Translations under genes and position numbers: made by a program
Assembly: GCA_963815115.1 (NCBI GenBank)
Contig: CAWFFN010000007.1
Span: 1,056,001 to 1,120,000 of the forward strand
Direction of reading: 5' to 3'
DNA: 64,000 nucleotides
Source of the DNA: an uncultured delta proteobacterium
GTDB lineage: Bacteria; Desulfobacterota; Binatia; DP-6
Shown: piece after piece, positions 32,578 through 50,688 of the stretch
How positions within the stretch are numbered: position 1 is the stretch's first letter
Layout of the letters: every line of letters starts with the position of its first letter
The notes under the pieces: generated by a model
Database searches by the model: none
What the model was told of the DNA's origin: nothing
The model's input: only the letters and a program-made list of their open reading frames with translations

Positions 32578-32791
32578 CTGCCGCCGCCCGCTCCAGCGCC
32601 GCCACGGCCAGGAGCGGGCGCGAGCACCCGCCCGGCGGCGAAGCAGGTGACTAGGGAAGCTCTGCCGCAAGGCGCTCGACATGGTAAAAGAGGAGCGTGT
32701 CGGGCGATGAAGCTGGGAGGTGGGGGATGGGTGAGCAGCGCACGTTCGCCGGCATCGCGTGGAGCCAGAAGGGCAAGGTGAGCCGGCTACT

Positions 32792-33664
32792 ATGACCAAC
32801 GCGCTGCTCCTCCTCTTCGCGACGTCGGCCCTCGCCTCGCCCACTGCCACCCTCCCCGTGAGCACGAAGCGTGGGCTGTGCGCGACCACGTGCCAGGCTC
32901 AGAGGGCCGTCCTCTGCGGCGGCCTTGCCGGCGCGGAGGCCGAGCAGTGTGGCGAGGCGCTCGAGTCGGCCTGCCGCCGAGGCAACCCGCAGGAGGTCTG
33001 CGCGATCACGAATGACGCGGCGGCGGCCGGGGCAGTGCTGTGTCAGAAGCCCAACGGCCTGGTGATCCTGCGGAATGCGTCTCCAGGATGCAAGCCGAAG
33101 GAGACGGAGATCGGTGTCCTGGGGGAGCCGGCGCCGGGCGGGGCGACCGGGCCCACGGGTCCTACCGGCCCTGCTGGTTCTCCTGGTCCGCAAGGCCCGC
33201 CGGGGCCGACGGGTTCGCAGGGCGTGCAAGGCGTTCCGGGGCCACCCGGCTCGATTGGCCCCCCCGGGCCCACGGGCGAGGTCGGTGATGCTGGACCCAC
33301 CGGCCCCACGGGGGCGATGGGAACGACTGGCCCGACGGGGGCGACAGGTGCCACGGGCGCGGGCTCGACGGTGCGTGTCACGGTCGAGACGGCGACGACC
33401 GTGAGTGAGGTGCGGCCCGACGTGGGGACGTTGCTCGCCGCCACCGCAAGCTGTCCACCAGGCCAGCAGGCGACGGGTGGGGGCGTGTCGGCCTCGCCGA
33501 GCAACAGCGCGGACGATTCCCGCCTACACACCCTCGAGTCGGGCCCCGTCCCTGGCGCCATCCCGCCCGTGCAGTGGTTCGGTCGCATCGGGGTGATTCA
33601 ACGCTTCTCGCCCGGCAGCGTGTTGACGTTGACGGTGTTTGTGCTGTGCGTGCCGGCTCCGTAG
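32792..33664 (+). CDS. Secreted collagen-like protein
   Basis: Signal peptide, Cys-rich N-domain, about 25 uninterrupted Gly-X-Y triplets, C-terminal [13 protein letters not shown]...VLC domain. Confidence 0.85.
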
Positions 33665-33852
33665 CGGAGGGGTTCGTTCATGGCGGTAGACCAGTTGCCG
33701 CCGAAATTCCCAGCCCTCGACGACGCGCCCAGGCGAGACGCCGGGTGTCGTCGATTCCTCCTGGAGCCGGTCGTGCGATCCCGGCAGCCTCCCAGAGAGT
33801 GCCAGGCCCCGCGGCCTGGCCGAGTGAACGACGTTGACCCACGACCTTCCTG

Positions 33853-33874
33853 GTTGTACAGGAACCGGTACAAC
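33853..33874. promoter_or_regulatory. YefM-type operator palindrome
   Basis: GTTGTAC-N8-GTACAAC; TGTACA and GGTACA cores 12 bp apart just upstream of yefM, resembling the TGTACA-core operator of E. coli yefM-yoeB. Confidence 0.7.
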
Positions 33875-33885
33875 TCCAAGATGCG

Positions 33886-34134
33886 ATGAACATTGTCGGC
33901 TACAGTGCGGCGCGACAGCGGTTGGCAAAGCTGATGGACTCCGTGGTCGATGATCGCCGGCCGGTCGTGGTCACGCGGCGAAAGGCCCCGGCGGTGGTCA
34001 TGCTGGCGCTCGACGAGTACGAGGCGATGGCCGAGACCCTCCACCTCTTGCGCAGTCCGAAGAACGCGCGCCGGCTGCACAAAGCGGTACGCGACGCCGA
34101 CGCTCGCCGGTTCGTCCGTAGTCCGCGAGGATGA
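33886..34134 (+). CDS. yefM: YefM/Phd antitoxin
   Basis: YSAARQRLAKLMDSV...PVVVTR...VVMLALDEYEAMAETLHLLRSPKNARRL. Confidence 0.93.
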   Translation: MNIVGYSAARQRLAKLMDSVVDDRRPVVVTRRKAPAVVMLALDEYEAMAETLHLLRSPKNARRLHKAVRDADARRFVRSPRG

Positions 34135-34397
34135 TCGAGCGCTGGACGGCGGGAGCCGCCCAGGACTACCGCTGGTTCCGCGCCCAGGATCCGAGGACCG
34201 CGGCCCGCATCGATCGCCTGATCGAGGAGACCAAGCGCAGGCCGTTCGCGGGTATCGGCAAACCAGAACCGCTCCGCGGGACGCTGACCGGGTGGTGGTC
34301 GCGCCGTATTGCGGGCGAGCATCGCCTCGTGTACCGCGTCGTGGGCAAGGGCGCAGCGCGTGAGTTGCAGATCGCGCAGTGTCGATACCACTACTGA
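34131..34397 (+). CDS. yoeB: YoeB/Txe toxin
   Basis: PFAGIGKPEPLRGTLTGWWSRRIAGEHRLVY...IAQCRYHY; ATGA overlap with the antitoxin. Confidence 0.95.
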   Translation: MIERWTAGAAQDYRWFRAQDPRTAARIDRLIEETKRRPFAGIGKPEPLRGTLTGWWSRRIAGEHRLVYRVVGKGAARELQIAQCRYHY

Positions 34398-34442
34398 AGC
34401 AGTGGACTGACCCGACCACGAAGCGCGTTCGGGTAGTGTTCG

Positions 34443-34485
34443 AGTGCGCCCAGGCTGATTCGAACAGCCGACCTTCTGATTCGTA
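34443..34485 (-). repeat. Displaced tRNA-Arg 3'-half, copy 3 (att site relic)
   Basis: + strand AGTGCGCCCAGGCTGATTCGAACAGCCGACCTTCTGATTCGTA matches 50687-50729 except for 2 compensatory T-stem changes. Confidence 0.9.
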
Positions 34486-34813
34486 ACCGTCGGCACGCGT
34501 GCTCGTCCGTCCTGATTCAGCGTCATCCGTAGCCATTCGCGGACGCGCGGCCTCGATGACTTCGGATGACGTCGAATCAGCTCAGATGGCGCGGTTACCG
34601 AGTAGTCATCGAGAACCAGCCGAGGCGGCGGGCGAGCGCCACGATCGCGCGCTGTTCCTGGAAGACGCGCCGGGCAGATGGCTGGTAGGCACGAAGAGCG
34701 AATACCCCTTCGTGCGTCTTCCACGACCGCGAACGAACCGAGTGGACCCCGGGGGCGGAACTGCCACCCTCAAGCGACGCACGAAGCGGCGGCAGCCAAG
34801 CAACTGATCTCTC

Positions 34814-34857
34814 AGTGCGCCCAGGTTGATTCGGACAGCCGACCTTCTGATTCGTAG
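34814..34857 (-). repeat. Displaced tRNA-Arg 3'-half, copy 2 (att site relic)
   Basis: + strand AGTGCGCCCAGGTTGATTCGGACAGCCGACCTTCTGATTCGTAG; two differences from copy 1. Confidence 0.88.
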
Positions 34858-35088
34858 ACAGAAGATTTTTCGCGTGCTCCGCCCACGATTGGCGCGGGTT
34901 TTCAGCGTCTCCCGAGGCGCTCAGATCCCGATGTCGCCAGTCGTGTCGCCACCCAGGAGCGACGCAGCGATCCTGCCGTGCTTCGGGTCGTCCTGCAGCC
35001 GATCGGCCGCACCCAGGGCCTCTGAGCAAGACCACCCGTGGATCCGTCCTCGGTGTTACTCGTACTCCTGGCGTGGTAACGTCGAGCC

Positions 35089-35295
35089 ATGGAGGAGCTG
35101 ATCTTCGTGGTCGAGGAGGCACCGGAGGGGGGCTTCACGGTCCGCGCGCTCGGGCCGTCCATCTTCACCGAAGCGGACACCGTCCCCGAGCTGCACGCAC
35201 AGGTCCGAGATGCCGTGAGCTGCCACTTCGACGAGGGTCAGGCCCCCAAGGTGATCCGGCTTCATTTCGTCCGCGACGAAGTGATCTCGGCATGA
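35089..35295 (+). CDS. HicB-like antitoxin
   Basis: ELIFVVEEAPEGGFTVRALGPSIFTEADTVPELHAQVRDAVSCHF; ATGA overlap with the hicA-like gene. Confidence 0.8.
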   Translation: MEELIFVVEEAPEGGFTVRALGPSIFTEADTVPELHAQVRDAVSCHFDEGQAPKVIRLHFVRDEVISA

Positions 35296-35542
35296 AGCTG
35301 CCGCGGGACCTATCGGGTCCCGACCTGGCGAAGGTGTTGCGTAGCCTCGGCTACAAGGTCACCCGCGCCAAACCGGAAGCCACATGCGGTTGACCACCAC
35401 GCAGCGCGGCGAGCATCACGTCACCGTACCTGGCCACGGCCCGCTCAGCGTCGGGACACTCGCCGGCATCCTCGCTGACGTGGCCGCCCACTTCGAGATG
35501 AGCCGCGATGACCTGATGATGAAGCTCTTCGGCGGGAACTGA
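35292..35542 (+). pseudogene. hicA: HicA toxin with a 2-bp frameshift
   Basis: Removing GC at 35367-35368 gives MKLPRDLSGPDLAKVLRSLGYKVTRQTGSHMRLTTTQRGEHHVTVPGHGPLSVGTLAGILADVAAHFEMSRDDLMMKLFGGN*, with the HicA GSH motif. Confidence 0.85.
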
Positions 35543-35588
35543 CAGCGGACTTCGCACTGTCCGCGGGACTCGGGCGACTCGGGACCGA

Positions 35589-35633
35589 AAGTGCGCCCAG
35601 GCTGATTCGAACAGCCGACCTTCTGATTCGTAG
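35589..35633 (-). repeat. Distal att site of the 15-kb element (tRNA-Arg 3'-half, copy 1)
   Basis: 45-bp direct repeat of 50686-50730 with 2 mismatches forming a compensatory T-stem pair; identity ends at the anticodon loop. Confidence 0.93.
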
Positions 35634-35685
35634 CAGGAAGGTCGGCCGCACACTTCCCGCTGGAAAGTCACGCGCTTCGCGCCGC

Positions 35686-36879
35686 TCAGGCGTCGCCGCT
35701 TGCAGCGCCGCTTGCAACCAGCGCCGCCAGCCGATCCGCTGCCGCCGGATCGCGGTCGCGAATCCAGCTCCCGTAGACGTCGATCGTCACCCGGATCGAG
35801 CTGTGTCCGAGCTGCTGCTGCACCCACTGCGGCTTCGCCCCGGCGAGCAGGTGCAGGGTGGCGAACGAGTGCCGCAGCGCGTGCGGCGAGAACGGGGCGG
35901 GCTCTCCCGTTGCCATGAACCCGGCCTTCACGAGCACCCGGGCGAAGTCGCGCTCGACGTTCCGCTGGCTGAACGGCGTGCCGTTGCCCGTGACGAACAG
36001 CCACGGCGGCACGGGACGCCAGCGCCGGCCCATCGCGAGCGCCGGGCGCTTCGCCTTCACGTCCGCGAGCACGGCGATCAGCTCCTCGCTGAGGTCGATG
36101 GTGCGCGCGCGACTCGTCTTCGTGGTCCCGGGCATCGGCCGCCGCGGACTCGAGTCCTGCCCGAGCGACCGGCGGACGTCCCCTTCCCGCTGGTCGAGGT
36201 GGAGATCCTCGAGCTGCCAGCCGAGCAGCTCGCCGAGGCGGAGCCCGGTATGGGCGCCGGCGAGGTAGAGGCCGTGCAGCCGCGAGCACCGCTCCGCCAT
36301 CGCGAGGAAGCGAGTGAGCTGGTCCTGGTCCATGGCCTTCACCCGGTCCTCGCCGTCCGGGTCGGCCTCGAACTGCTTGCGCAACGTCTTGCCGGGGACG
36401 GCGACGGGGTTGAGTGCGATCAGCTCGTCCTCGGCCGCCTCATTCAGCAGCGCGCGGAGGGCGGCGAACATCAGGCGGACGCTGTCCGGGGCGTAGCCCT
36501 CCCGTCGCTTCGCCACGACGAGCGCCTTCACAAGGGGCCGCTGGATGTCGGCGAGCCGCAGATCCCCGAGCCGCCGGCCCCGCACCACGAAGGGCAGGAC
36601 ATGCTGCTCGAGGAGCGCCTGATAACTCGCGCGCGTCCGCGGCTTCCAGGTCGCCGCATTCGCCTCGAGCCAGAGCGCCGCATAGGCGGCGAGCGTCTGT
36701 CCCGGATCGCCCACCGGATGCAGCGTCACCTTGGGCGTCGCGTTGACGACGGCCTGCCGTGCCTCGGCCTCCGTCTTCGTGGCGTAGAACTCCTGCCGGC
36801 GCTTGCCATGGGCGGTCGTGAACTCGACCTTCCAGCGGACCGCGCCGTGGTTGTGGACCTTGGTCGGCTTGCCGGTCAT
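35686..36879 (-). CDS. int: Tyrosine recombinase / phage integrase
   Basis: Catalytic set TGLRLGEL (R), TTKT (K), HALRH (HxxR), LGH and DVY (Y) intact; N-terminal arm-binding-like region; adjacent to att. Confidence 0.95.
   Translation of the reverse strand: MTGKPTKVHNHGAVRWKVEFTTAHGKRRQEFYATKTEAEARQAVVNATPKVTLHPVGDPGQTLAAYAALWLEANAATWKPRTRASYQALLEQHVLPFVVRGRRLGDLRLADIQRPLVKALVVAKRREGYAPDSVRLMFAALRALLNEAAEDELIALNPVAVPGKTLRKQFEADPDGEDRVKAMDQDQLTRFLAMAERCSRLHGLYLAGAHTGLRLGELLGWQLEDLHLDQREGDVRRSLGQDSSPRRPMPGTTKTSRARTIDLSEELIAVLADVKAKRPALAMGRRWRPVPPWLFVTGNGTPFSQRNVERDFARVLVKAGFMATGEPAPFSPHALRHSFATLHLLAGAKPQWVQQQLGHSSIRVTIDVYGSWIRDRDPAAADRLAALVASGAASGDA
35694..35719. repeat. Putative integrase arm-type sites, left end
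   Basis: CGCCGCTTGCA at 35694-35704 and 35706-35716; the same CCGCTTGCA core is repeated at the right end. Confidence 0.65.
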
Positions 36880-37070
36880 CGCTTACCGCCGCGCGGGATC
36901 GTCGCGTCGGTGATGACGTACTTTATCAAGCGGACGACCCCCGCGGGGACGGCTACGGTGCCCTGCTCCCAGCGCCCGACCGTCCGGGGTGTCACGCCGA
37001 GGCGACGGGCGAACTCGACTTGCGTCCACTGCTGGCGCCGCCGGAGCCGGCGGACCTCCTGACTGGTCAT
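36876..37070 (-). CDS. Xre-family HTH regulator
   Basis: VRRLRRRQQWTQVEFARRLGVTPRTVGRWEQG; ATGA-coupled to the integrase. Confidence 0.85.
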   Translation of the reverse strand: MTSQEVRRLRRRQQWTQVEFARRLGVTPRTVGRWEQGTVAVPAGVVRLIKYVITDATIPRGGKR

Positions 37071-37284
37071 GCTGTCCAGTAGACACCATGTCCTGCCCGG
37101 TGTCCAGACGGCCCGCGAGGAAGGCCTCGAGGGCGGCCGGATGCACCCGGAAGCACTTGCGGCTCGCGATCAGCGCCGGAAGCCGGCCGGCGCGGATCAG
37201 CCGGCGCACCTCGCGCTCGCGGATCTGGAGCACCGCCGCGACCTGGGCGGGCGTGAGCGCGTGCAGGTGCTCGGCGTCGGCCAT
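36883..37284 (-). CDS. Excisionase-like HTH protein
   Basis: AAGGAG RBS; LTPAQVAAVLQIREREVRRLIRAGRLPA...FRVHPAALEAFL. The reading frame runs on over the Xre gene, so the C-terminus is doubtful. Confidence 0.7.
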   Translation of the reverse strand: MADAEHLHALTPAQVAAVLQIREREVRRLIRAGRLPALIASRKCFRVHPAALEAFLAGRLDTGQDMVSTGQHDQSGGPPAPAAPAVDASRVRPSPRRDTPDGRALGAGHRSRPRGGRPLDKVRHHRRDDPARR

Positions 37285-37343
37285 CACTCCTTCGGGTTGA
37301 GGCGCGCGCGCCGGTGTCGAGCCGTCGCGCGCGCCGTCTCGTC

Positions 37344-38009
37344 TCAGTATTCGTCGGGGAGAAGCACTGTCGTCTGCGGACGACCACGACGATCCGTCAT
37401 CACCCACACCTCCTCGATGCCCGGCACGTCCGCATAGCTGCTGTGCACCGTGGTGTAGGCACCATCGCGGTGCGCGATGGCCGACAGCGTGCCGGCGTCG
37501 TCCGTCGCGAAGCAGCCACGCCGCAGCTGATCGTCGGTCACCTCGATCGTCCTCACGTGACCGAACTTGCCGAAGTCCCCTTGCGCGTGCCGCAAGAGCC
37601 AGGGGGTGAGGACGCTCGCGACGGGCTTGAATCCCTGCCCGTGCAGTCCGAGCGCCGTGACGACCCCTGGTGTCACCACCACCGGCCCGAGGTGCACGAA
37701 GTCGACGACGCTGCTGAAGATGAACTGCACGCCACCCTCGTCGATGAGGTCCTGCACGCTCCCGAACTCGAACTCGATCGCTTCCATGTCTGCCTCCCTA
37801 GTGAGCCCCGCGTCCTCAACGCGGGGGCTGGCCGCGGCCGGCGCCGCGGGCGTGGTGGTGGTGGTGCGGCAGGACCAGCAGCGCAGGTCCAGATCGCCAC
37901 CGGCCGGGGCGATCAAGACGCCGCAGCTCCGACAGGGCACCCGTCGGACGACGTCCCCAGTGGACGGCCAGACGCCGATGTCGCTCCGGGCGATGTCATC
38001 CGGGCGCAT
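37344..38009 (-). CDS. Mobile-element protein (RHxxGDxG...TTVLLPDEY family) with possible N-terminal CxxC pair
   Basis: ATG 38009 overlaps the primase stop (TGATG); CRSC and CWSC; alternative start with GGAGG RBS at 37787; C-terminus WVMTD...TTVLLPDEY. Confidence 0.6.
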   Translation of the reverse strand: MRPDDIARSDIGVWPSTGDVVRRVPCRSCGVLIAPAGGDLDLRCWSCRTTTTTPAAPAAASPRVEDAGLTREADMEAIEFEFGSVQDLIDEGGVQFIFSSVVDFVHLGPVVVTPGVVTALGLHGQGFKPVASVLTPWLLRHAQGDFGKFGHVRTIEVTDDQLRRGCFATDDAGTLSAIAHRDGAYTTVHSSYADVPGIEEVWVMTDRRGRPQTTVLLPDEY

Positions 38010-40384
38010 CACGGCACGAACCCGCCCTTGGGCGGCCAGGGCGTAGGCGTACCAGCCGAGATGACGGTGACCGGACCGAAGATCTCGACGACGGTCTGGA
38101 GAGCAGCCTTGTCCGCCGCCAACGTCGCGGCCATGTCGTCGACGACATCGTCGGGCCCATCGACGAGGAGCTTGTCCCCGTCGATGTCGATGAGGATCTC
38201 GTCGGGATCCGGCTCCCGGTCGCAGCCGGCGCACTCGAGAGAGCCGCAGGTCACGCAGGCGAGGCGGACTCGATTCCCACTACCCCCTACCCCTGGGGAA
38301 GTAGAAAACGCCGGGAAGCGGGAAGCCGATTTTGACCCCTTCTCTCCCAAGGGTTTCCGCTCCGTTTCGCTTCCCGCCCTTGTGTCGCATGGCCGGGAAG
38401 CGGGGGTGCTCGCTGCGGCACGACTGGCGCGGCTTCCAGGATCCGCTTCCCGCTTCCCGGCTTCCCGCTCACTTCTCCCGACCACGACGGTGGGGTGCCC
38501 CGCCCGCATCAGATCCTTCACCAAGGACCAGGCGCGCCCGTCGTGCTCGTCGAGCAGCGCACGAGCCCGGTTCCGAGGGGCGCCCGCATCCTGGAGGACG
38601 GCGCCCGCCTCGCCCAGGGTGAGCGGCAACTCCGTGGCCTTCGCCCGACGGTCCACCTCGGCCACGAGGGTGGCGACAAGCTTGGCCTCAGCCTCGGCCC
38701 GTTCGGCGGCCGCCTGCGCCCGGGCGGTCTCGCCGGCCGCGTGGAGCTCCGGAGTCACCTCGCGCAGCGACCAGGGCTCGGCGCCGAGGGAGATCTCGAG
38801 GGCGAACGGCTCCGGCTCCTCCCCGACCCGGAACTTCGACGGGATGAAGGCGAGGACGTAGCGGTCCCGCTTCGTGCGGCGCGTGGCCCGCTCGGCCCAA
38901 TCGGCCCGGCCAGCCGCTGGCAACTCGGTCCACCACTCCTTCGTCCCGCTCGGCTGAAAGCCGGTGGCGTCCCGCACCTCGTAGGCGATGTCGGCTCGGT
39001 CCTCGATGACGCCGCTCCCCCGCCCGTGCGAGCCGCTCTTGATGGTGTTGCCGAGGACGAGGATCGCGGGGCCGCCAGCCCGATGGACGATGTCGAGCAG
39101 CGGCGCGATGGCCTTCGCCGGCTTGCTGGAATCCTGCTCGCCGATGCCCTCGGTGCTCGCGTCCAAGCTGTCGACGATCACGAACGCATAGGTGCCGAAC
39201 GGGAACGTCCGCCAGGCCGCGGCGTCAGTGAGCGGCGGGACCTCGTCGCGGGTCATCACTTTGAGCGTGGTGAGATCCGCAGCCCCCCAGGCACGCAGCC
39301 GTCGCCGGATCTCCCGCTTCGCGTTGTCGCGGTCGAGCAGCAGGACCTCCTGCCCCTTCCGCGCCAGCTCGATGGCGAAGGCGTACGAGACGTGAGTTTT
39401 TCCCAGACCTCTCGGTGAAAAGAAGTTGGTGAGCGAGCCCTGGCTGAGGACGCGGGGGATGAGCCAATCGAGTGCGGGATCATCACCGGCAAGAAATTCG
39501 GTGGCCGGCACAGCCCTGCTCCAGATGTTTCCCGACGAGCCGGCACCCGTGAACGAGGTGCCGGTGTCGAACGTGTCGGGCCCGAACCAGCTCGCGAGCT
39601 TCTCGAGGACGGGGGCACCCACCAGCTCGGCCACGCGAGGGCCGCCGGTCGCCTGGCCGCCCCGGGCGAGTCGCTGCGCCGTCGTGAGCACGTCCCGCAC
39701 GCGGTCGCGCGTCTCTTCGTCGCCGGCCACCCCCGCTGCCGCCCCGACGATTGTCTGCACGACCTCCACGGGCACGGCGCGCCGCAAGAGATACCCCGCA
39801 GCGGCAAGGGCAAGGTGGTGCCGCACCCCGACCTCACGCGGCCAGATCCGCGCGAGCAATGCGGTCACCGCGATGGACCGCACGGCGGCCACGAGTAGCG
39901 CGGTCGGCACCACGGCCGGGGTCCGCGGCTCGCCCTCGAACGCGATGACGTCGCCGTTCGGATGCACGGATGGCGGCCACACAGTCTGTGAGCGGGTCGA
40001 GAGCATCTCGACGAGCATGTCGGTGCGCTTCGTGACGGGATCCTGCGGGGCGGTGAACTTCGTCGTCGGCGGCGTCGGGATGCACCGATACAGCCAGTGC
40101 GACCGCGGCTTCCCGGGTCGTCCGAAGACGAGCGGCGTCGGCGACAGGAACAGCGCCGCGACGGCAACGGCTTCGGGCGCGTCGAGGTCGACGTCGACCA
40201 GGCCGCCCGACGGGTCGCCGTTCAGGACACCGACGTTGCTGTCCGGATGGAAGCGGCCGACAGACTCCTCGGTGTGGCGCTCGTCTGGCCAGTGGTCGCG
40301 GCCCGGATTCTTGGAGCCGCGGGGGATCTCGATCGGTGCGAAACCGGCGGCCAGGTACCGTCGGGCTGCTTCGATGGCGGTCAT
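38009..40384 (-). CDS. Bifunctional primase-polymerase fused to an AAA_25/RepA-like helicase
   Basis: Prim-Pol motifs NVGVLNG...LVDVDLD, SHWLY, TVWPPSVHPNG; helicase WLIPRVL...SPRGLGKT, VLLLDRDN, VIVDSL, RGSG. Confidence 0.88.
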   Translation of the reverse strand: MTAIEAARRYLAAGFAPIEIPRGSKNPGRDHWPDERHTEESVGRFHPDSNVGVLNGDPSGGLVDVDLDAPEAVAVAALFLSPTPLVFGRPGKPRSHWLYRCIPTPPTTKFTAPQDPVTKRTDMLVEMLSTRSQTVWPPSVHPNGDVIAFEGEPRTPAVVPTALLVAAVRSIAVTALLARIWPREVGVRHHLALAAAGYLLRRAVPVEVVQTIVGAAAGVAGDEETRDRVRDVLTTAQRLARGGQATGGPRVAELVGAPVLEKLASWFGPDTFDTGTSFTGAGSSGNIWSRAVPATEFLAGDDPALDWLIPRVLSQGSLTNFFSPRGLGKTHVSYAFAIELARKGQEVLLLDRDNAKREIRRRLRAWGAADLTTLKVMTRDEVPPLTDAAAWRTFPFGTYAFVIVDSLDASTEGIGEQDSSKPAKAIAPLLDIVHRAGGPAILVLGNTIKSGSHGRGSGVIEDRADIAYEVRDATGFQPSGTKEWWTELPAAGRADWAERATRRTKRDRYVLAFIPSKFRVGEEPEPFALEISLGAEPWSLREVTPELHAAGETARAQAAAERAEAEAKLVATLVAEVDRRAKATELPLTLGEAGAVLQDAGAPRNRARALLDEHDGRAWSLVKDLMRAGHPTVVVGRSEREAGKREADPGSRASRAAASTPASRPCDTRAGSETERKPLGEKGSKSASRFPAFSTSPGVGGSGNRVRLACVTCGSLECAGCDREPDPDEILIDIDGDKLLVDGPDDVVDDMAATLAADKAALQTVVEIFGPVTVISAGTPTPWPPKGGFVP
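38311..38468. repeat. Iteron-like GGGAAGC/GCTTCCC cluster (candidate origin)
   Basis: GGGAAGC at 38313, 38320 and 38395; GCTTCCC at 38369, 38445, 38452 and 38460. Confidence 0.6.
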
Positions 40385-40444
40385 GGAAAGGTACCTTCTC
40401 GGCCCGAGCCGGCGCACAAGACGCCAGCCCGGGCCGCGTTCGCG

Positions 40445-40915
40445 TCAGAAGGGGATGTCGGTCTCCGGCGGCGACGCCGGAGCCTGCGGTGATGCTGTCT
40501 GCGGTTGCGGTGACGGCAAGAGCTTGGTGATCCGTGCGAAGGATTGGCCAGGCTTCTTCGTCGACGGGACGTATTCGATCAGCGCCTGGCACTGGCGGCC
40601 GAGGAACATGCCGCTCGTGATGTTCTGCCCGTCGGCCGGGATGTGGACTCCGAGCGCCCGGCAGATCGCGCCGAGGTTCGACTTCTCGTGCGTCGAGAAG
40701 TTTGTCATGAGCTTGAAGGTCCCTTCGCCCGCGTGGCCGATGGGGACGATGTCGAAGACGAGCTTCTGTTCCGGCTCGTCTGACTGGTACTTCGTGCCTT
40801 GCTTGGTCGTGACGTCCACGACCTCGACCGGGTACACCCCAGCCGGCTTGGTCCAGTCGATGAAGCCGCCGCTCTCGGCGCGCTTTGCCTTTCCGAGGAT
40901 CTGGTCCTGTGCCAT
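40445..40915 (-). CDS. Phage-type ssDNA-binding-like protein
   Basis: AAAGGAG RBS; PAGVYPVEVVDV OB-like start; acidic tail ending ETDIPF as in SSB tails; immediately upstream of the primase. Confidence 0.65.
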   Translation of the reverse strand: MAQDQILGKAKRAESGGFIDWTKPAGVYPVEVVDVTTKQGTKYQSDEPEQKLVFDIVPIGHAGEGTFKLMTNFSTHEKSNLGAICRALGVHIPADGQNITSGMFLGRQCQALIEYVPSTKKPGQSFARITKLLPSPQPQTASPQAPASPPETDIPF

Positions 40916-40928
40916 CGACAATCTCCTT

Positions 40929-41273
40929 TCAGGTGGTCAGGTCGCGGACGACGATGTTGTGTGGAGCCAGCAGCCACCGGACCCGCGGCAGTGGCGAACG
41001 TAGCCCGTCGCCAAGATGGCCCTGGCCGCCTCCTGCACCGCCTCCCGCTTCCAGCGGCGCTCGTGAGCGAGCCGCAGCACGGCCCGAACCGTCCTCCGGT
41101 CGTGGTGCAGCGAGTACGCAGCCCGGATCTTTCGCGCTGCGATGTCCGGCAAGCTCGGGTCGGTGCCGAACTCTTCGACCGAAGTGCCGGACGTTCGCGG
41201 CGGCCTTAGCGCGCCGTTCGAGTGTCCAATCGCGGGAGTGGACGGGGGGAAAGTTGAACGCTAGAGTCGTCAT
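40929..41273 (-). CDS. Hypothetical protein, possibly frameshifted near 41150
   Basis: GAGGAG RBS; after about 40 codons a second frame (PDIAARKIRAAYSLHHDRRTVRAVL...) reads more protein-like. Confidence 0.4.
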   Translation of the reverse strand: MTTLAFNFPPVHSRDWTLERRAKAAANVRHFGRRVRHRPELAGHRSAKDPGCVLAAPRPEDGSGRAAARSRAPLEAGGGAGGGQGHLGDGLRSPLPRVRWLLAPHNIVVRDLTT

Positions 41274-41412
41274 GTCGATCGGTTCTCCTCTGTTCGGGTG
41301 ATGGCCGGACCGGCGCTCGACACGCCGGTCCTGGCCCCTGGACGAAGTGACGGGCCTGCGATTCCCGCCGACGGGGGACCGCGGATCACGACACCGGACC
41401 GGTGCGCGGCGG

Positions 41413-41604
41413 TCACGATGCCTCCTTGAGAAAGCTGGCGAGCTCCGAGCGCAGCCACCGCGGCCGCCCCGCCACCCGGCGCGGGCGTGGCAAGTCACCG
41501 CGGGCGACCATTCGATCGATGGTTGATCTCGAGAGCCGCCAGAGCCGGCACAAGTCGGCCGCGCTCAGCATCGCCAGGCTGTCGTCGTCGGGGTGCGTCG
41601 TCAT
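41413..41604 (-). CDS. alpA: AlpA-family regulator
   Basis: LSAADLCRLWRLSRSTIDRMVARGDLPRPRRVAGRPRWLRSEL. Confidence 0.88.
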   Translation of the reverse strand: MTTHPDDDSLAMLSAADLCRLWRLSRSTIDRMVARGDLPRPRRVAGRPRWLRSELASFLKEAS

Positions 41605-41645
41605 GGTGACGCCCGCATACACCCGCGACTCGCACCCACCGAAAA

Positions 41646-41685
41646 TGCGTGCTACGCAAACCCCCGCAGAATCCTCGATTCTGCG
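41646..41685. promoter_or_regulatory. Palindromes in the divergent promoter region between alpA and the zinc-finger gene
   Basis: TGCGT-GCT-ACGCA (41646-41658) and perfect CGCAGAATC-CTC-GATTCTGCG (41665-41685). Confidence 0.55.
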
Positions 41686-41699
41686 TTCGCACTCACAGC

Positions 41700-42572
41700 A
41701 TGCGACGAGACGAAGGCTACTGGAGCGCCGTGGCGCTGGTGGGGTTTGCCAACCTGCCCATCACCCGCGCCACGTGGCGCAGCCTCTGGGGCGCGTGGGG
41801 CTGGCCATCCTCGCCGCCGCTCCGGACGCCGGCGCGCCGGCGCTGGGACGCGCGGATGGTCGGGCTCGCGCGAACGGGACGCGTGGACGAACTGCAGCGG
41901 GCGTATCGAACCGAACTGAGGCGGTACGGCGATGAGGGCCGCCGCGCGTCCCTCGACCCGGCCGACTGGGTGCGGGGGCTGCCGGAAACCCCCGTCGATC
42001 TCGAGGGGCGGGTGGCGCTCATCGACCGCTCAGGCGACCTCTTCATCGACCCACCGACGACCCGGCGCGTCGGCGTCGTCCTGGCGGTGCACCAGGCGGC
42101 GGGGGACCGCCTCGCGACCATCATCGCCGGCAAGCCACAGGCACTCTACAGCCTCTGCACCGCGCTCATCCGCGTGCCGCTCGGCACGGGGCTGGCGGTG
42201 ATCCGCCATGTCGGCTCGGACGGCCTGCAGGCCGAACCACCAGCCGACGAGACAGAGTCGCTCGCCGCGTGGGTCGACGGCCTCTTCCTCCGTGCGGCCC
42301 GCGCAGGCTTCTGGCCACGGTTCTTCACCTGCGCGACCTGTGGGCGGTTCACCGTCGGGCGACTCCGGCGGGCACGCTTCTGCAGCAGCCGGTGCCGCGC
42401 CCGGGCGCACCGGAAACAGCATCCCAGGTCGCAGCCCGGGGCTGCGATCCGTGCCGCGGTCGAGACGCTCCGCCGGCAGGGGGTGCGCGCCGACACGGCG
42501 GTGGCACGGGTCGCGCGGCAGTTCGGTTTTCCCGAAGCCGCCGTCTGGCAACTGACAGCCCGGCACTCCTGA
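41700..42572 (+). CDS. Hypothetical protein with C-terminal CGNR-like zinc finger
   Basis: CATCGRF...RFCSSRCRARAHR; divergent from alpA. Confidence 0.65.
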   Translation: MRRDEGYWSAVALVGFANLPITRATWRSLWGAWGWPSSPPLRTPARRRWDARMVGLARTGRVDELQRAYRTELRRYGDEGRRASLDPADWVRGLPETPVDLEGRVALIDRSGDLFIDPPTTRRVGVVLAVHQAAGDRLATIIAGKPQALYSLCTALIRVPLGTGLAVIRHVGSDGLQAEPPADETESLAAWVDGLFLRAARAGFWPRFFTCATCGRFTVGRLRRARFCSSRCRARAHRKQHPRSQPGAAIRAAVETLRRQGVRADTAVARVARQFGFPEAAVWQLTARHS

Positions 42573-42624
42573 GTGGCCAGGAGTGCACATCTTAACTTAA
42601 CGTCGGGCGAGTGGCTCGCTTCCT

Positions 42625-43362
42625 CTACTCCCGGTCCATGTCGGAGAACTCTCGCAACTGGTCGGACAGAAACTCCTCCACCTCGTCGCCGGTGATGCAG
42701 GCGGAGTTGGCGGCACTGTTGAGGTGCCGCTGTGCCTCTCGCACGCCATCCCGCAGCTGCACGAAATCCACAACCCACCCTTGGCCGAGCGTTGGGTTGC
42801 CGTCCTTGAGACGCCCGTACCGGAACGCCTCGCCAGTCGGATCGACCTGGTGAAGCTTCGCGATGACGTCCCGCACGATGGGCGGCAGCGGTAACCCGTC
42901 GTACTTGAGCAGCTGCAGCCAGGGGACGACCCCGCGGTCGAGGAGCTTGAGCAAGTCATGGCTGCGCAGCAAGCCGGCGCTCTCCTTGCGAAGCTGCTCG
43001 GCTCGCTGGGTCAGCTTCTTGTCCAACTCGCGGGCTCGCTCCTTGAGACGGATCGCGTGCTGGACGTCACGGATCAGCTCCTTCAACTCCAGCTCGAGCC
43101 CATGTCGATACAAGAAACAAATCGGATACCACAGTGGCGGCGTCGGGAGGGGTCGCCTGCCGCTGGGGGTCTGGGTTGCCTGGATCACCTTGAGGACGTC
43201 CCCCGTCTGGAGGGCGGCTTCCGCCTGGACGACGTCTTCAACGAGTCGGTCCGCCGCGTCGAGGAAGCCCGTGCGATACGCGAGGTCGTCGTTCTGCGCG
43301 CTGAGTTCGACCGGGCACGTCGCTGTTGCACTGGTCGGGGTGGGCTTCTCGTCCTTGGGCAT
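42625..43362 (-). CDS. HEPN-like helical domain protein (candidate defence cargo)
   Basis: YRTGFLDAADRL...YPICFLYRHGLELELKEL...SHDLLKL...DPTGEAFRYG pattern. Confidence 0.6.
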   Translation of the reverse strand: MPKDEKPTPTSATATCPVELSAQNDDLAYRTGFLDAADRLVEDVVQAEAALQTGDVLKVIQATQTPSGRRPLPTPPLWYPICFLYRHGLELELKELIRDVQHAIRLKERARELDKKLTQRAEQLRKESAGLLRSHDLLKLLDRGVVPWLQLLKYDGLPLPPIVRDVIAKLHQVDPTGEAFRYGRLKDGNPTLGQGWVVDFVQLRDGVREAQRHLNSAANSACITGDEVEEFLSDQLREFSDMDRE

Positions 43363-43524
43363 CGAAGGGATCGCGCTACTGCACCGGCCCCGTCGCGCTC
43401 ACCAGATCGCCCGCCGCCTCCAGCTCGTCGAGGAGCTGCGCCGCCTCGGCCTCGGGCACGCCGAGCAGCTCGGCCACGAGGGCATCGGCACGATGTCCTC
43501 GGGAAGCCAAGCGAGGGCGGCTAG

Positions 43525-45176
43525 CCCGGATAATTCACGCCCGCCAGCGTGAAGAAGCCACCGGACCCCTCGAAGTGTGCTATTGACGCGGTTGTCGAGG
43601 CCAGCGTCGAGCACGCTGAGGAGGGGTGGCGGTGGCTGCAGAGTGTCATAGTCGATTCGGCTTCGCTTTCCAACGGAAGCTCACGGCTGCGTTCGACGGC
43701 GGCGAGATCACGACCGAGGCGGGGCTGCTCCTTGTTCGGGAGTTCGACGAGCGGTTGGGGCTGACGGCGGCCCTCCGCGACGCGGTGGCGGATGAGCGGG
43801 ACCGGCGCTACGTGACGCACGACGTCCTCACGCTCCTGCGCCAGCGCCTCTACCAAATCGTGGCCGGCTACGAGGACGCCAACGACGCCACGACCCTGCG
43901 GCACGATCCCGCGCTGCAGAGTGTCGTCCACCGGCTCGGGACGCCGCTCGCGTCGCAGCCGACGCTCTCGCGCCTCGAGAACGCGGTGGAGTGGGACACG
44001 ATCCGACGCCTGGGCACCGTCCTGCGCCAGTGGTTCACCCGGCACGGGGTCTCGCACCTCGAGCCGCCCGGGGAGGTGATCCTGGACCTCGACTCCACCG
44101 ACGACCCGACGCACGGGCAGCAGCAGCTCAGCTTCTTCAATGGCCACTACGACGAGCACATGTACCACCCGCTGCTCGTCTTCGCCGACGGCTATCTGCT
44201 CGGCGCGCGGTTGCGCCCCGGCGACGTCGGCGGTGCGACGCATGCCTGGCCGCTGCTCGAGCCGATCATCGCGCATCTGCGCGCGCAGCTGCCGACCACC
44301 GGGCTCGCCCTGCGGGCCGATGGCGGCTTCTGCAACCCCGACCTGCTCGATGCGGCGGAGCGGGCGGGGCTCACCTACGCGATCGGCATGGCCCCCAACC
44401 CCAGGCTGGACGCGGCCGTCGCGCTCCACCGCGTCCACGCCCACGTCACGTATGAACGCACCGGCCGCCCGGTGCGGTGGTTTACGAGCGTTCACTACCA
44501 GACGCGCAGCTGGGCACGGCCACGGCGCGTGCTCGCGATGATCGAGCACACCGCCCAGGGCCCGAACGTCCGCTACGTGGTCACCAACCGCCGCGGCCGG
44601 GCGGCCGAGATCTTTCACTGGTACCACCAGCGCGGGCAGGCCGAGAACTTCATCAAGGAACTCAAGCGCGATCTCGCCGCCGATCGACTGTCGTGCCACG
44701 CCTTCCGCGCCAACGCGTTTCGCCTCCTGCTGCACGCGCTCGCCTACGACCTGCTCCAGCTCTTCCGCCAGCGCGTGCTCGCCGGGACCGCGCTCGCGAG
44801 CGCGACGCTGGGCACGGTGCGCCTGCGGCTGCTCAAGCTCGGCGCGCGCGTCGTGCGCTCCGTCCGGCGCTGGTGGTTCCACTGCGCCTCCGGCTGGCCG
44901 GGGCAGCCCCTCTTCCTCGTCGTCCATCGCCGGCTCCGCATGCTGCGTGCGTCGCCCTGACGGCTTGGGCGCGCCGCACACCTCGGAGCTGCTCCTCGCC
45001 GCGGTATCCGACCCCGCTGCGCCGCGGTGTGGTTGCCGCCCGCCAGTGCACGCCGCTTGAGCCCGCCACGAGCCGCGTCGCCGCTCGCGAGGCCCGCGGT
45101 CACGGCACCCGAATCCGTCGCGGGCGATCAGCCCGTCATCCGCCCTGGGTGACTGGCACTTCATGAATGATCCGGG
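43525..45176 (+). mobile_element. IS1380-family insertion sequence, 1652 bp
   Basis: Terminal IRs CCCGGATAATTCAC / CCCGGATCATTCAT (reverse complement); CTAG 4-bp target duplication at 43521-43524 and 45177-45180. Confidence 0.93.
43626..44960 (+). CDS. IS1380-family DDE transposase
   Basis: FDGGEITTEAGLLL, GYEDANDA..LRHDP, ASQPTLSRLEN, LDLDSTDDPTHGQQ, LRADGGF, YHQRGQAENFIKELK. Confidence 0.95.
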   Translation: MAVAAECHSRFGFAFQRKLTAAFDGGEITTEAGLLLVREFDERLGLTAALRDAVADERDRRYVTHDVLTLLRQRLYQIVAGYEDANDATTLRHDPALQSVVHRLGTPLASQPTLSRLENAVEWDTIRRLGTVLRQWFTRHGVSHLEPPGEVILDLDSTDDPTHGQQQLSFFNGHYDEHMYHPLLVFADGYLLGARLRPGDVGGATHAWPLLEPIIAHLRAQLPTTGLALRADGGFCNPDLLDAAERAGLTYAIGMAPNPRLDAAVALHRVHAHVTYERTGRPVRWFTSVHYQTRSWARPRRVLAMIEHTAQGPNVRYVVTNRRGRAAEIFHWYHQRGQAENFIKELKRDLAADRLSCHAFRANAFRLLLHALAYDLLQLFRQRVLAGTALASATLGTVRLRLLKLGARVVRSVRRWWFHCASGWPGQPLFLVVHRRLRMLRASP

Positions 45177-45230
45177 CTAGGCCGGCGTCGTGCGCATGGG
45201 TGGGGTCGGCACGATGGACGTCCAACGCTG

Positions 45231-46070
45231 TCAGCTCTCCGTCGACCCGAAAGTCGAGAGTCCCGCCTCGGCTGCCAGCAGCTTCCACATATCTGGAGGG
45301 TTGAACATCATTGGGCGTGCGAAGTTCCCTTCAAGTGCGGTGAGAACCTTCATCCAAGTGGCCGTTGTAATCTCGCACATCTTCACCCTCCTTACGATTG
45401 CCTTCGATTCTGACGATGGGATGACGACCCCGAACCACGGTGGGTCGTCGAACGTAGCCGCGATAGCCGCCTGCCCACGCCAGCCATGAAAGCCGCAACG
45501 ACGCTCCGTTCCCGTCGCCCCATAAGACGCGCTGAAGAGCATCTGTCCGAAGAAGCAGAGACCACGCCTGGGATCAGACTGTGCTCTCAGACTCTCTACT
45601 TCACGCCGGAACAATTCGATGATGTCCTCCGCGCGCTCAACGTCCAGGATGCTATACCGGTGCTCAACGGCGTTCCTGTCGTCAATTGCCCTGGCCAAGA
45701 CGCGTTCCGCTAGCTCGTCGATAATCCGCCGTCTGACCAACACTTCGCTCTTCTGGTCTGATGTCGCCGGCGCGTCTCGGCAGAATGCGAAGCCATCTCG
45801 CCGAAGGTACCAGTCCACAAGAGAGCCCAGACCCCGCCGGGCATTCGTGACGGCGTTGACTGTGTGCCGGTGCTTCCTACCTGAATCGACCTCGCTGCGA
45901 GCTTGCTGAATCTCGGCGACGGCCCACTGCAAATACTGCCCGTCATCGATTTGTCCCGGGGAAGTCCAGGTAAGCCCCGTCGCCTCGTGCCCGCTGAGCG
46001 TGCCAACGGCACTCAATATGTCAGCGGGGTCGAGCGGTTCGAAGCTGCAAACGCCCTTGGTCACGTCCAT
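45231..46070 (-). CDS. Hypothetical protein with HEPN-type RxxxxH motif (candidate RNase/defence)
   Basis: NAVTNARRGL...RNAVEH (R-x4-H); visibly lower GC than flanks. Confidence 0.6.
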   Translation of the reverse strand: MDVTKGVCSFEPLDPADILSAVGTLSGHEATGLTWTSPGQIDDGQYLQWAVAEIQQARSEVDSGRKHRHTVNAVTNARRGLGSLVDWYLRRDGFAFCRDAPATSDQKSEVLVRRRIIDELAERVLARAIDDRNAVEHRYSILDVERAEDIIELFRREVESLRAQSDPRRGLCFFGQMLFSASYGATGTERRCGFHGWRGQAAIAATFDDPPWFGVVIPSSESKAIVRRVKMCEITTATWMKVLTALEGNFARPMMFNPPDMWKLLAAEAGLSTFGSTES

Positions 46071-46189
46071 CCCGGGTCACTCCTCACCTAGTCCGTTTGC
46101 TCTTCCTCCGGGCGCTCGGCGCTGCCAGCACGGGGGCGTGAAAACCGGGGGAGGCCGTCCTCAGCCGACGAGGCTATAGAGTTCTTGAG

Positions 46190-46450
46190 TCATCGCGGAC
46201 CGACTTGAACGTTGAGGCTGCGACTGTTGCCGTAGACGGCGGCCCGGCACCCTGCCGGATCGCCGCCCTGACGGATGCAGCTATCAACGTCCGCAGCCTG
46301 GCGTTCGCGAGCGCGAGCTTCGGCCTCGCGACGTGCGCAGTAGGGGCTGTTGTGAATGCCTGCGATGCGAGAGCCCTCGTCGCCGCAAGGGACCATGCAG
46401 CCCGCCAAGCCGACTACTGCGGTGAGGCACGCGCGCGACAACAGGCGCAC
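46190..46450 (-). CDS. Small putative lipoprotein
   Basis: Signal with lipobox VGLAGC; additional Cys residues; 86 aa. Confidence 0.5.
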   Translation of the reverse strand: MRLLSRACLTAVVGLAGCMVPCGDEGSRIAGIHNSPYCARREAEARARERQAADVDSCIRQGGDPAGCRAAVYGNSRSLNVQVGPR

Positions 46451-46624
46451 GCTTGATGGCTACCAATGTTCCCCTAGTTCTTCAAGGTGGGGCGCCGAGG
46501 CGACCCGCTCCCAACCCCGACGGCACCGCGTCCCTGTCACGCTCCCAGGACGTGCGGGCGCGGGGCCGCCGGGTTCACGTCACCGCCGCGGCCGCCCCCC
46601 GCCCGCCAGCCGCGCGCCCTCGTA

Positions 46625-46951
46625 TCAGTCGAAGGCTCCCGCGACCGTCAGGTCGGCCAGCTCGGTCAAGTGCACGCGGACGGCGTCCTCAAGGTCTCGA
46701 TGCACTTGCGCCCCATCGATCCCCCAGCCCGCGGCGAGGACCGCCGCAACCCGGGCTGGCCAATTTAACCAGGCATCGCGATAGCCCTGCGCGGCATTCC
46801 TCACGACGCGCGTGACGGTCGCGATCTCGGCCAACTCGCCGCGGCGACGGCGCACCTCGAGCTGCCGCAGATCAGCTAACGCCGTCTCCTTGCGGCGCCG
46901 GGCCGCCTCGAGGCTCTCGCCGGGAGCCTGTTTCCGCCCCGCCCCGCTCAC
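46625..46951 (-). CDS. Terminase small subunit (Nu1-like) C-terminal oligomerisation part
   Basis: ARRRKETALADLRQLEVRRRRGEL...RDAWLNWPARVAAVLAA...VRVHLTELAD; GTG start overlaps the upstream stop (GTGA). Confidence 0.7.
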   Translation of the reverse strand: MSGAGRKQAPGESLEAARRRKETALADLRQLEVRRRRGELAEIATVTRVVRNAAQGYRDAWLNWPARVAAVLAAGWGIDGAQVHRDLEDAVRVHLTELADLTVAGAFD

Positions 46952-47253
46952 TCGTCGTCGTCGGTGTTCCACTCCGCCCCCGCGGCATCGGCCCGGCGCA
47001 CGAACTCCCGCCAGATGTAGTCTGACACCTCGGTTTCTGGATCGAGCCACGGCCGAAACTCCCGCGCGCGGCCGGGCCGCTGGAGGGTGCCCAAGGTATT
47101 GCCGCGCCAGTCCTCCAGCACCCCCACCGCGTCCCACCGCCCATCCTCCTCCCGGGTGATCGTTCCGCGAGCCTCGGCCTTCGCAATCGCCTGGCGGGCC
47201 ACGCCCAGGATGGCGGCGAGCTGGCTGTCAGTGTCGACGAAGGCGCGGGACAT
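46948..47253 (-). CDS. Terminase small subunit-like N-terminal winged-HTH part
   Basis: SQLAAILGVARQAIAKAEARGTITREEDGRWD; first gene downstream of the cos-like site. Confidence 0.62.
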   Translation of the reverse strand: MSRAFVDTDSQLAAILGVARQAIAKAEARGTITREEDGRWDAVGVLEDWRGNTLGTLQRPGRAREFRPWLDPETEVSDYIWREFVRRADAAGAEWNTDDDE

Positions 47254-47386
47254 CGGGGTTACCGCTCATGCCGGTCGCTCCGGGTGCCGGACCCGGGGGG
47301 ACCCTGTGAGAAACCGCAGGCTTCGTTCGCCATGTCATCAGGAGGTGCAACCCCGATTTTGGGGGTGAAATCTAGGCCAACGCTGC

Positions 47387-47428
47387 CCCCCGACGCCCCG
47401 CTCCGCCTCCACTTCATTCCCAGGACCC
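47387..47428 (-). other. Lambda-like cos site (cosQ plus cosN)
   Basis: Minus strand GGGTCCT (47428-47422, identical to lambda cosQ), 23 nt, then GGGCGTCG, versus lambda GGGTCCT-N23-GGGCGGCG; directly upstream of the TerS-like genes. Confidence 0.65.
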
Positions 47429-47575
47429 GTGACCGCTAACTACGAATCCGCGGGGCATGGCGGGGCGTTGACCGCTGATCGGGTAGGTTACGGCCGCACG
47501 GTAGACTGCGAGTCAAACGCGCTTTCGACGAGGATTCGGTCAGGCAGGAGGGCAGGTGGGTGCCGCGTTGGTGCT

Positions 47576-48034: not shown

Positions 48035-48385
48035 GGTGGCCCTTTTTTGGACGCCACTTCGAGTCGTGACGTCGGGTGCCCCTACGGCTTCGGCTGTTTA
48101 GTCGAGACGTGTGCGCCTCGTCAAGTAGGCGATTTACCGCTGCGCGCGCCTTCCGGCTCAGGGCGGCTCCGTGCGGTTCGATCGATGCGGACGCGATCGG
48201 TGCTCCGGTGCTCCCAGCGCCCATTGTGGTCGGTCAAGGCCAATAAGTGGCGGCCGGTGTCGCGACCTCGGCCTCCAGCGCCGCCAGGAGCATGCGGCGG
48301 GCACCCTCTCGCTCCTCCGCCCAGCGCGCCTCGATCGACGGAGCCAGTTCTGCCAGAAGGCCGGGCCGAACAGATCCATGCCGCG

Positions 48386-48922: not shown

Positions 48923-48933
48923 CGCGTCTCCTT

Positions 48934-49398: not shown

Positions 49399-49399
49399 G

Positions 49400-49905: not shown

Positions 49906-49980
49906 CCAGCATCAGCTTAGCTAATATGCACCTGGAGCGTCAAGAAGTGGCGCGAATGGATGGACGATACGCGGATGCCC

Positions 49981-50684: not shown

Positions 50685-50688
50685 CAAG

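Follow-up and report, generated by a model that had tools for sequence, protein, structure and literature searches.

An intact tRNA gene that shares its strand with several displaced copies of its own 3′ half raises the question of how the segments held between these copies arrived, and what became of them. We addressed this question for the tRNA-Arg(ACG) gene of an uncultured delta proteobacterium (lineage Desulfobacterota, Binatia, DP-6), whose genome (G000; 6.9 Mb, 70% G+C, 12 contigs) contains the window analyzed here, that is, the whole 64-kb stretch G000:C7:1056001-1120000, to which all coordinates given without a label refer. The intact gene and three displaced halves delimit a 15-kb integrative element (A) and two much smaller segments, B (∼0.73 kb), with a hicB-like gene and a broken hicA toxin gene, and C (∼0.33 kb), with no gene. 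Our analysis makes it probable that the locus is a pile of eroded islands stacked by tandem accretion at a tRNA hot spot, in which B and C are integrase-less remnants still bounded by attachment (att) sites, comparable to cis-mobilizable elements (CIMEs) or to streamlined toxin-antitoxin (TA) islets.

Displaced 3′ halves of the tRNA-Arg(ACG) gene

With both ARAGORN and Rfam, a single intact gene for tRNA-Arg(ACG) was detected (50688-50762, minus strand). A 42-nt pattern of its 3′ half, searched with up to three mismatches, matched the window four times against 0.00 expected from 100 shuffles: at 34444-34485 and 35591-35632 (no mismatches), at 34815-34856 (two mismatches) and within the intact gene itself (50688-50729, two mismatches). 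The corresponding features, all on the minus strand, are copy 1, the most distal displaced half (34443-34485), copy 2 (34814-34856), copy 3 (35590-35632), which serves both as the attR of element A and as the proximal att of segment B, and the att copy of element A nearest the tRNA (50687-50729), which is the 3′ half of the intact gene. A repeat search likewise assigned the halves to a single family, 43-44 nt in length, whose members start 371, 776 and 15097 nt apart, and a fuzzy scan of the rest of the 6.9-Mb genome detected no further copies of this 3′ half. These results bear out the preliminary description, made from the sequence alone, which had reported three copies in the same orientation besides the intact tRNA, all bounded at the anticodon loop, with coordinates that proved right within 1-2 nt.

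All copies share one start, in the anticodon loop (c|TACGAA), and one end, two nucleotides past the discriminator base, and every displaced copy has the orientation of the tRNA. The anticodon loop, where the crossover thus falls, is one of the tRNA sublocations recognized by Islander, and the same c|TACGAA boundary recurs at displaced copies in G018, G019, G020, G022, G024, G036, G077, G148 and G154. The outer flanks differ among the displaced copies, and each has its own inverted repeat: at copy 3 a perfect (100%) 10-nt inverted repeat with the anticodon-stem/variable region, at copies 2 and 1 a 6-nt inverted repeat with the anticodon-stem side (the latter two recognized by eye). Every displaced copy presents an attR-type junction, and the flanking inverted repeats may represent attP-derived core half-sites. 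Under the standard integration model copy 1 would be the original chromosomal half.

Over 43 nt, copy 1 has the same sequence as copy 3. Both differ from the intact gene by one compensatory pair in the T-stem (GGCTG/CAGCC in the copies vs GGGTG/CACCC in the gene), and copy 2 has two structure-breaking changes, a C·A mismatch in the T-stem and a T-loop change from TTCGAAT to TCCGAAT. That the displaced copies have a T-stem variant other than that of the working gene fits a history in which incoming elements have replaced the 3′ half repeatedly. Among close relatives, too, even within one genus, the T-stem of this tRNA varies by compensatory pairs (GGGTG/CACCC, GGCTG/CAGCC and GCATG/CATGC).

The identity of copies 1 and 3 would fit an origin of the extra copies by local duplication, by unequal crossing-over, by gene conversion between att copies or by homologous recombination of the Campbell type, involving a circle that carries a tRNA fragment. 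We nevertheless consider such an origin very improbable, as B and C share nothing beyond the 43-nt core and are therefore not duplicates of each other, the repeats all stop at the anticodon-loop position used by integrases in other genomes, and no two outer flanks are alike.

Element A and the segments without an integrase

Element A (35633-50687, minus strand) occupies the space between copy 3 and the intact tRNA. Next to copy 3 it encodes a tyrosine integrase of 397 aa (35686-36879; PF00589, 77 bits; phrog_1), already assigned to this position in the preliminary description, with a translationally coupled Cro/C1-type helix-turn-helix (HTH) gene (36876-37070). It further contains a PrimPol+AAA_25 replication protein gene (38009-40417), two excisionase-like HTH_17 genes (41413-41622 and 49699-49905) and, inserted on the plus strand, a DDE transposase gene (43626-44960; DDE_Tnp_1_4, 480 bits), right after which ∼2 kb (44961-46947) hold no coding-like open reading frame (ORF). 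The transposase insertion and the ∼2-kb non-coding stretch mean that even this newest element is itself beginning to decay. Conjugation genes are absent from the locus.

The two arms of A carry a candidate recognition sequence. The 9-mer TGCAAGCGG has four exact matches in the 64 kb, against 0.79 expected, all of them at the two ends of A and all on the tRNA strand: two copies in the integrase-side arm (35696-35716, minus strand; 63-84 nt from copy 3) and two in the tRNA-side arm (50583-50602, minus strand; 95-115 nt from the tRNA). We regard them as putative arm-type sites of the A integrase. In B and C, TGCAAGCGG was not found even with one mismatch allowed.

The distribution of these sites bears on an alternative, raised in the preliminary description for a neighboring integrase acting in trans and taken more broadly here, according to which B, and perhaps C, would be att-bounded cassettes that enter or move as units, through a resident tRNA-specific integrase acting in trans or in cis with A (as in CIMEs), the tRNA anchoring the array. 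Local alignments of all pairs of arms from A, B and C gave scores within the shuffled range (for the three integrase-side pairs, the observed score was reached by 67, 71 and 184 of 500 shuffles). Motifs that by eye had seemed collinear in the B and C arms were dismissed on the same ground (67/500 shuffles). The 43-nt core is the only sequence that the two segments have in common. Unrelated arms, the confinement of TGCAAGCGG to the ends of A, a broken hicA and a degenerate copy 2 all argue against this alternative, which we consider unlikely. Of 17 joints in low-depth Logan metagenome contigs, none of the 15 listed falls at an att copy; such data cannot show absence, and stretches of the window that these runs leave uncovered carry no evidential weight.

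The suggestion that the locus forms an integron-like array fared no better. In a chromosomal integron, short units, TA pairs among them, are lined up with a recurring recombination site between one and the next. Integron integrase models (NCBIfam) scored only 42.5 bits (cut-off 265) and 31 bits (cut-off 435) with the integrase of A; unlike an integron the locus has no IntI, attI or attC, its repeats being tRNA halves, and its units are not co-oriented promoterless cassettes. Among 301 genomes of the class, the closest relatives of the A integrase are at most 40% identical and lie convergent to tRNA genes for Thr, Lys and Arg; given this variety of targets, they are uninformative with respect to copies 1 and 2.

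Segment B (34857-35589, plus strand; a 776-bp unit), between copies 2 and 3, consists of a 231-nt left arm, the hicB-like gene, hicA and a 47-nt right arm. The hicB-hicA pair proposed for this segment was substantiated for hicA, albeit as a frameshifted gene, while its partner can be called no more than hicB-like. The HicA toxin domain is present (positions 17-55 of Pfam PF07927 match 35366-35479 with 28.1-28.5 bits), and the N-terminal 25 codons of hicA (35292-35542, plus strand) lie in a different frame, starting at 35292. In 54 of the 80 homologous metagenome loci (sampling is given below) the two parts are contiguous in a single frame (...GY(R/K)(V/I)TRQTGSH...), and a soil metagenome contig that is 94%-like lacks 2 nt at 35364; hicA of the window thus carries a 2-bp insertion near this position. 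Its version of the gene is confirmed by two identical 151-nt contigs from another run. The upstream ORF of 68 aa (35089-35295, plus strand) matches no Pfam or NCBIfam family, and the profile built from 28 homologues gave E 0.005 with 2yzt, a protein of 67 aa, and E 0.35 with HicB structures. We named it hicB-like on the basis of this weak profile similarity and of its conserved pairing, as the upstream partner, with hicA (54/80 loci).

The right arm of B contains a hairpin and two GACTCGGG repeats in tandem (35567/35576). We considered GACTCGGG as an arm site of B and retain this only as a tentative reading, since only the tandem pair is conspicuous and matches with one mismatch are not enriched. 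An apparent C-terminal integrase remnant in the left arm ("AADRL...") was also rejected, the tblastn score with the A integrase being only 17.7 bits there. The best match of this query in 33600-35700 was a gapped stretch with stops (23 bits, E 0.02), and four other integrases gave nothing better than E 0.34 in the same interval. Tblastn with these five queries therefore revealed no integrase or recombinase remnant in B or C.

Segment C (34486-34813; a 371-bp unit), between copies 1 and 2, has no coding-like ORF, in line with its initial designation as a segment without a clear gene. It contains a hairpin with 25-nt arms (34512-34580) and one copy of a structured dispersed repeat of ∼60 nt (34658-34726). 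This repeat has 16 BLAST matches in G000, its own locus included (e.g. C7:470543, C9:323394 and C5:1775486), and several in genomes of the same genus. It is G+C-rich, with a predicted hairpin of −36 to −39 kcal/mol, has no Rfam match in the region searched, and, in one sediment metagenome, its contigs add up to a high depth. It may belong to a small RNA family or be a REP/MITE-like element (a repetitive extragenic palindrome or miniature inverted-repeat transposable element).

Beyond copy 1 lies a yefM-yoeB module with a TGTACA-type operator/promoter (33830-34400, plus strand), whose proposed identity was upheld by Pfam and NCBIfam for both yefM (33886-34134, plus strand) and yoeB (34131-34397, plus strand), with 79.8 bits for PF02604, 105.2 bits for PF06769 and 90.4 bits for TIGR02116. 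Its 0.58-kb unit, from promoter/operator to stop, is 88% identical in the same-genus genome G001, where the flanks are unrelated, and no direct repeat flanks it in either G000 or G001. It is a separate TA islet in the flank past the last copy. A supposed fourth, degenerate tRNA copy upstream of yefM (33820-33860) was discarded, this stretch being conserved with the yefM promoter in G001 and containing a TGTACA-type palindrome. PADLOC identified no defense genes in the region beyond generic HTH matches; neither this nor the lack of repeats bounding yefM-yoeB supports the notion of a tRNA-anchored defense array. Further out, the left flank contains a gene for a collagen-triple-helix-repeat protein (32759-33664), and synteny with genomes of the same genus is lost between about 30520 and 31380.

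We propose the following sequence of events. The tRNA-Arg(ACG) gene would be a hot spot for elements whose tyrosine integrases cross over in the anticodon loop, each arriving element bringing a new tRNA 3′ half and shifting the previous one outward. At least three integrations would have been stacked in this way, A being the newest, with its integrase, replication gene and excisionase-like genes still in place. Deletions would have shortened two older elements, B to 0.73 kb and C to 0.33 kb, with only their att junctions kept; C would have lost all genes, and B would have retained hicB-hicA, most likely because loss of an addictive pair is counter-selected. This pair would now be decaying in the usual order, toxin first, with a 2-bp insertion in hicA and hicB intact. 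We infer the order of events, the loss by deletion and addiction as the cause of TA survival; direct observations are the repeats and the boundary common to them, the genes that the segments contain, the damage to hicA and the absence of shared arms.

The same hot spot and the same module in other genomes

A degenerate tRNA pattern, searched in 401 genomes of the class, matched in 59 of them (G185 contributing a single match). At least two copies were present in 14 of these 59 genomes, and more than two in G000 only. In ten other genomes both copies are on one contig, 1.36 to 51.6 kb apart, and eight of these were examined (all except G069 and G241). The intervening segment contains a full integrase gene in three (G018, G148 and G154), an integrase split into two overlapping ORFs in one (G119), and no integrase in four, namely G019 (with IS110 and an AlpA-like gene), G020 and G077 (one Lcl_C-domain gene each) and G285. 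In G148 a full 7.5-kb element at tRNA-Arg(ACG) has a Phd/ParE pair adjoining its integrase. Integrase-less, att-bounded segments are thus common at tRNA-Arg(ACG), and TA pairs belong to the normal cargo of full elements at this site.

The segments with a single secreted Lcl_C-domain protein gene, L023:4213-5613 (G020, 1.36 kb) and L175:994-2984 (G077, 1.95 kb), come from different families. They were considered as one transferred cassette and rejected as such, their proteins being 40% identical with no DNA homology. Lcl_C-like genes also occur just past the island in G148 and within a tRNA-Val array (L085, see below).

In G285 (L176:996-2705) the 3′ half is repeated along with at least 70 nt of identical downstream sequence, a pattern that resembles the 43-nt cores elsewhere less than it does a tandem duplication or an att identity block of unusual length. 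This case speaks for the duplication origin of the copies weighed above, as do some of the repeats that flank the hicBA module in other organisms.

Relatives of the 68-aa HicB-like protein number more than 336 in metagenome contigs and 585 in species genomes, in many phyla and at 66-85% identity. We analyzed the loci in the best 80 metagenome loci and the best 80 species genomes (160 in all). For the former, 55 of the 80 were informative, with at least 300 nt on both sides of the module, and repeats of at least 20 nt were counted. In 14 of these 55 metagenome loci hicBA lies between direct repeats 526-1981 nt apart, compared with 18 of 354 when control positions were taken from the same contigs, these 18 being concentrated in 5 loci; among the species genomes, hicBA was found between short direct repeats in 10 of 71. 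The repeats are 20 to 268 nt long, many are perfect, and some are pieces of protein genes, a feature in keeping with duplication. Five of them are parts of tRNA genes (Arg-TCG, Lys-like, Leu-CAG, Val-TAC and Ser). In L077 a tRNA-Arg(TCG) repeat with a spacing of 1180 nt brackets an intact hicA on a 5.1-kb contig with no integrase. The Lys(CTT)-like 3′ half of L081 was assigned by reading the sequence, and the repeat of L254 is the 5′ part of tRNA-Ser. L104 (6758-11695) has three tRNA-Leu(CAG) 3′ halves and the intact gene. In L085 (3603-8677) two copies of the 3′ half of tRNA-Val(TAC), each a perfect 43-nt match, come after the intact gene and form part of identical 184-nt repeats; the interval between them holds BrnT and hicBA, which a 23-nt partial repeat copy keeps apart. 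In L077, L085 and L104 the halves were recognized as tRNA parts from their identity to the intact gene next to them, Rfam having reported intact tRNAs only. Two of these tRNA arrays hold other TA pairs too: BrnT in L085, and a ParE-like toxin with an HTH antitoxin in the neighboring cassette of L104.

This recurrence of TA modules between direct repeats, some of them tRNA-derived and many perfect, fits cassettes moving as units. So does a certain regularity of their architecture: in 6 of the 10 cassettes measured, the next repeat lies 38-53 nt past the hicA stop (in three further cassettes no such stop was called). Homology among the hicBA cassettes is, however, limited to the two ORFs (35086-35533 in the window), with no shared ends or recombination site found among them, and the tRNA targets differ from one cassette to another, so that no single helper integrase could serve them all.

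Intact integrases are rare beside the module. A hidden Markov model (HMM) built from 22 integrases, which recovers 19 recombinase-like ORFs in G000, gave two matches (both fragments) in 375 kb of metagenome DNA around hicBA modules and four in 1.06 Mb of genome DNA. An integrase or part of one does occur within 400 nt of hicBA in L136, with a Pfam-supported integrase 130 nt from hicA, and in L202, with a C-terminal fragment 292 nt from hicB, cases that speak for the remnant reading; the fragment in L219 is weak. The regularity and recurrence of the att-TA-att units, along with the rarity of intact integrases beside them, are what sustains the idea of mobilization in trans, to which we attach a low probability all the same.

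The L104 array points in another direction. Over about 410 nt, its 740-bp hicBA cassette is 82% identical to the beginning of a 3.1-kb segment next to it; this stretch takes in the tRNA half and distal arm as well as the first 49 hicB codons. The 3.1-kb segment no longer has the rest of hicB or any of hicA, and at its end an integrase fragment of 196 aa remains, 37 nt away from the intact tRNA-Leu gene. The hicA of the cassette has two in-frame stops, and the older tRNA halves have 2-3 mismatches. The cassette is a cut-down relative of its neighbor with the truncated integrase, and its derivation from an element related to an integrase-bearing one also counts against cassettes that travel independently. 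As L104 belongs to another organism, it supports the remnant model for the hicBA module generally and not for the window specifically.

Decay of the module follows a similar course elsewhere. The hicB-hicA coding part is present in G008 and G013 with a truncated hicA, in G013 (L049) between secG and tRNA-Leu(GAG), and L188 has a hicB-like gene with a tRNA-Leu(GAG) 160 nt downstream of it. Taken together, the window, G008, G013, L188 and L104 indicate that loss of the toxin with retention of the antitoxin is a repeated outcome.

Known systems and the meaning of the locus

Islander (PMC4383910) describes regenerated tRNAs with displaced fragments, anticodon-centered sites and tandem arrays, and makes displacement of one 3′ half per integration an established model; its counts are 2083 islands, 125 tandems of at least two and 4 tandems of at least three. 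The present locus is of the same kind, having an intact tRNA with cognate 3′ fragments downstream in the same orientation, a regenerated tRNA and a crossover centered on the anticodon. It differs in that A alone would qualify as an island: as described in that paper, an integrase is required in every member and candidates below 2 kb are rejected (PMC4383910), so that B (0.73 kb) and C (0.33 kb), which have no integrase, would be filtered out. A recent preprint (10.64898/2026.01.13.699239) defines att-delimited islands as larger than 2 kb and reports none below 4 kb with one exception. The presence of tRNA-fragment remnants is described as pervasive (PMC9897764).

A closer parallel is offered by the CIMEs of the ICESt1/St3 family (ICEs, integrative and conjugative elements) in Streptococcus thermophilus, which have lost integration and transfer genes and kept attL and attR (PMC5704250). 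The path outlined there comprises integration, decay and accretion, a later element entering one att site to form a tandem, and the transfer of such CIME-ICE tandems is noted, a documented case of mobilization in cis that lends the moving-cassette alternative some plausibility (PMC5704250). B and C likewise have att sites at both ends, lack integration and transfer genes, and lie next to an integrase-bearing element; they differ from CIMEs in being far smaller, in sharing no arms with their neighbor and in the absence of conjugation genes from the locus. The tandem ssrA islands of Dehalococcoides are reportedly also delimited by repeated 3′ fragments of a small-RNA gene, with another target gene and much larger cargo.

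The TA content of B fits the model of Belot et al. 2026 (PMC13617665), which envisages the gain of TA pairs through mobile genetic elements, streamlining to very small TA-only islands and frequent toxin pseudogenization. With its intact hicB and frameshifted hicA, B matches each of these steps. That study found the link between TA pairs and integrases weak and called the route of chromosomal TA integration unclear (PMC13617665), whereas the att scars seen here, as tRNA halves, mark integrase-type entry directly. A limited literature search on TA modules flanked by direct repeats or tRNA fragments returned no published description of arrays of TA mini-cassettes bounded by tRNA halves.

Stacked, eroded islands with persisting TA genes, the other possibility raised in the preliminary description, agree with the attR-type junctions, the lack of a recombinase remnant, the damaged copy 2, the frameshifted hicA, the gene-less C and the L104 array. 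Several observations weigh against this reading. Outside the tRNA core and the dispersed repeat, the DNA of B and C has no match in 25 genomes of the order, with the one exception of the hicB-hicA coding part in G008 and G013, where the context is unrelated. Organisms at 90-95% identity are present in soil metagenomes, and one contig of 842 nt retains the left arm of B before diverging from it. The expectation that relatives would show longer islands, of which the cassettes are deletion remnants, was borne out by L104 as an analogue in another organism and not by any full-length relative of B or C, and deletion in the window is a conclusion reached indirectly. The identity of copies 1 and 3 suggests that little time has elapsed, unless gene conversion keeps them alike. 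The rarity of an intact integrase beside hicBA across the 160 loci and the many perfect flanking repeats are not what pure slow erosion would predict, and the clustering of the right-arm length in 6 of 10 cassettes is more regular than random deletion. On balance, we still hold tandem accretion followed by erosion to be the probable history of this locus.

Overall, the locus is a genome scar of a known kind, a clean but ordinary case in which decayed integrative elements are stacked at a tRNA gene. Its broader significance lies in what such scars reveal about TA modules. Since island pipelines drop att-bounded units that are smaller than 2 kb or lack an integrase (PMC4383910; 10.64898/2026.01.13.699239), sub-kilobase remnants like B and C go systematically uncounted. 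In the window and 24 further loci, one widespread hicBA module still bears the target-duplication scars of site-specific integration, and the L104 array catches an intermediate with a truncated integrase. The path from integrase entry through streamlining to toxin decay thereby becomes directly testable on a defined module. It is doubtful that the att-TA-att units represent a recurrent class of integrase-less mini-cassettes, in which the conserved hicB-hicA and other TA pairs are repeatedly delivered to, or retained at, tRNA anticodon-loop sites, build arrays at these sites and are recombined by whatever tRNA-specific integrase resides there. If true, type II TA modules would have in such a class a concrete means of entering and leaving the chromosome.

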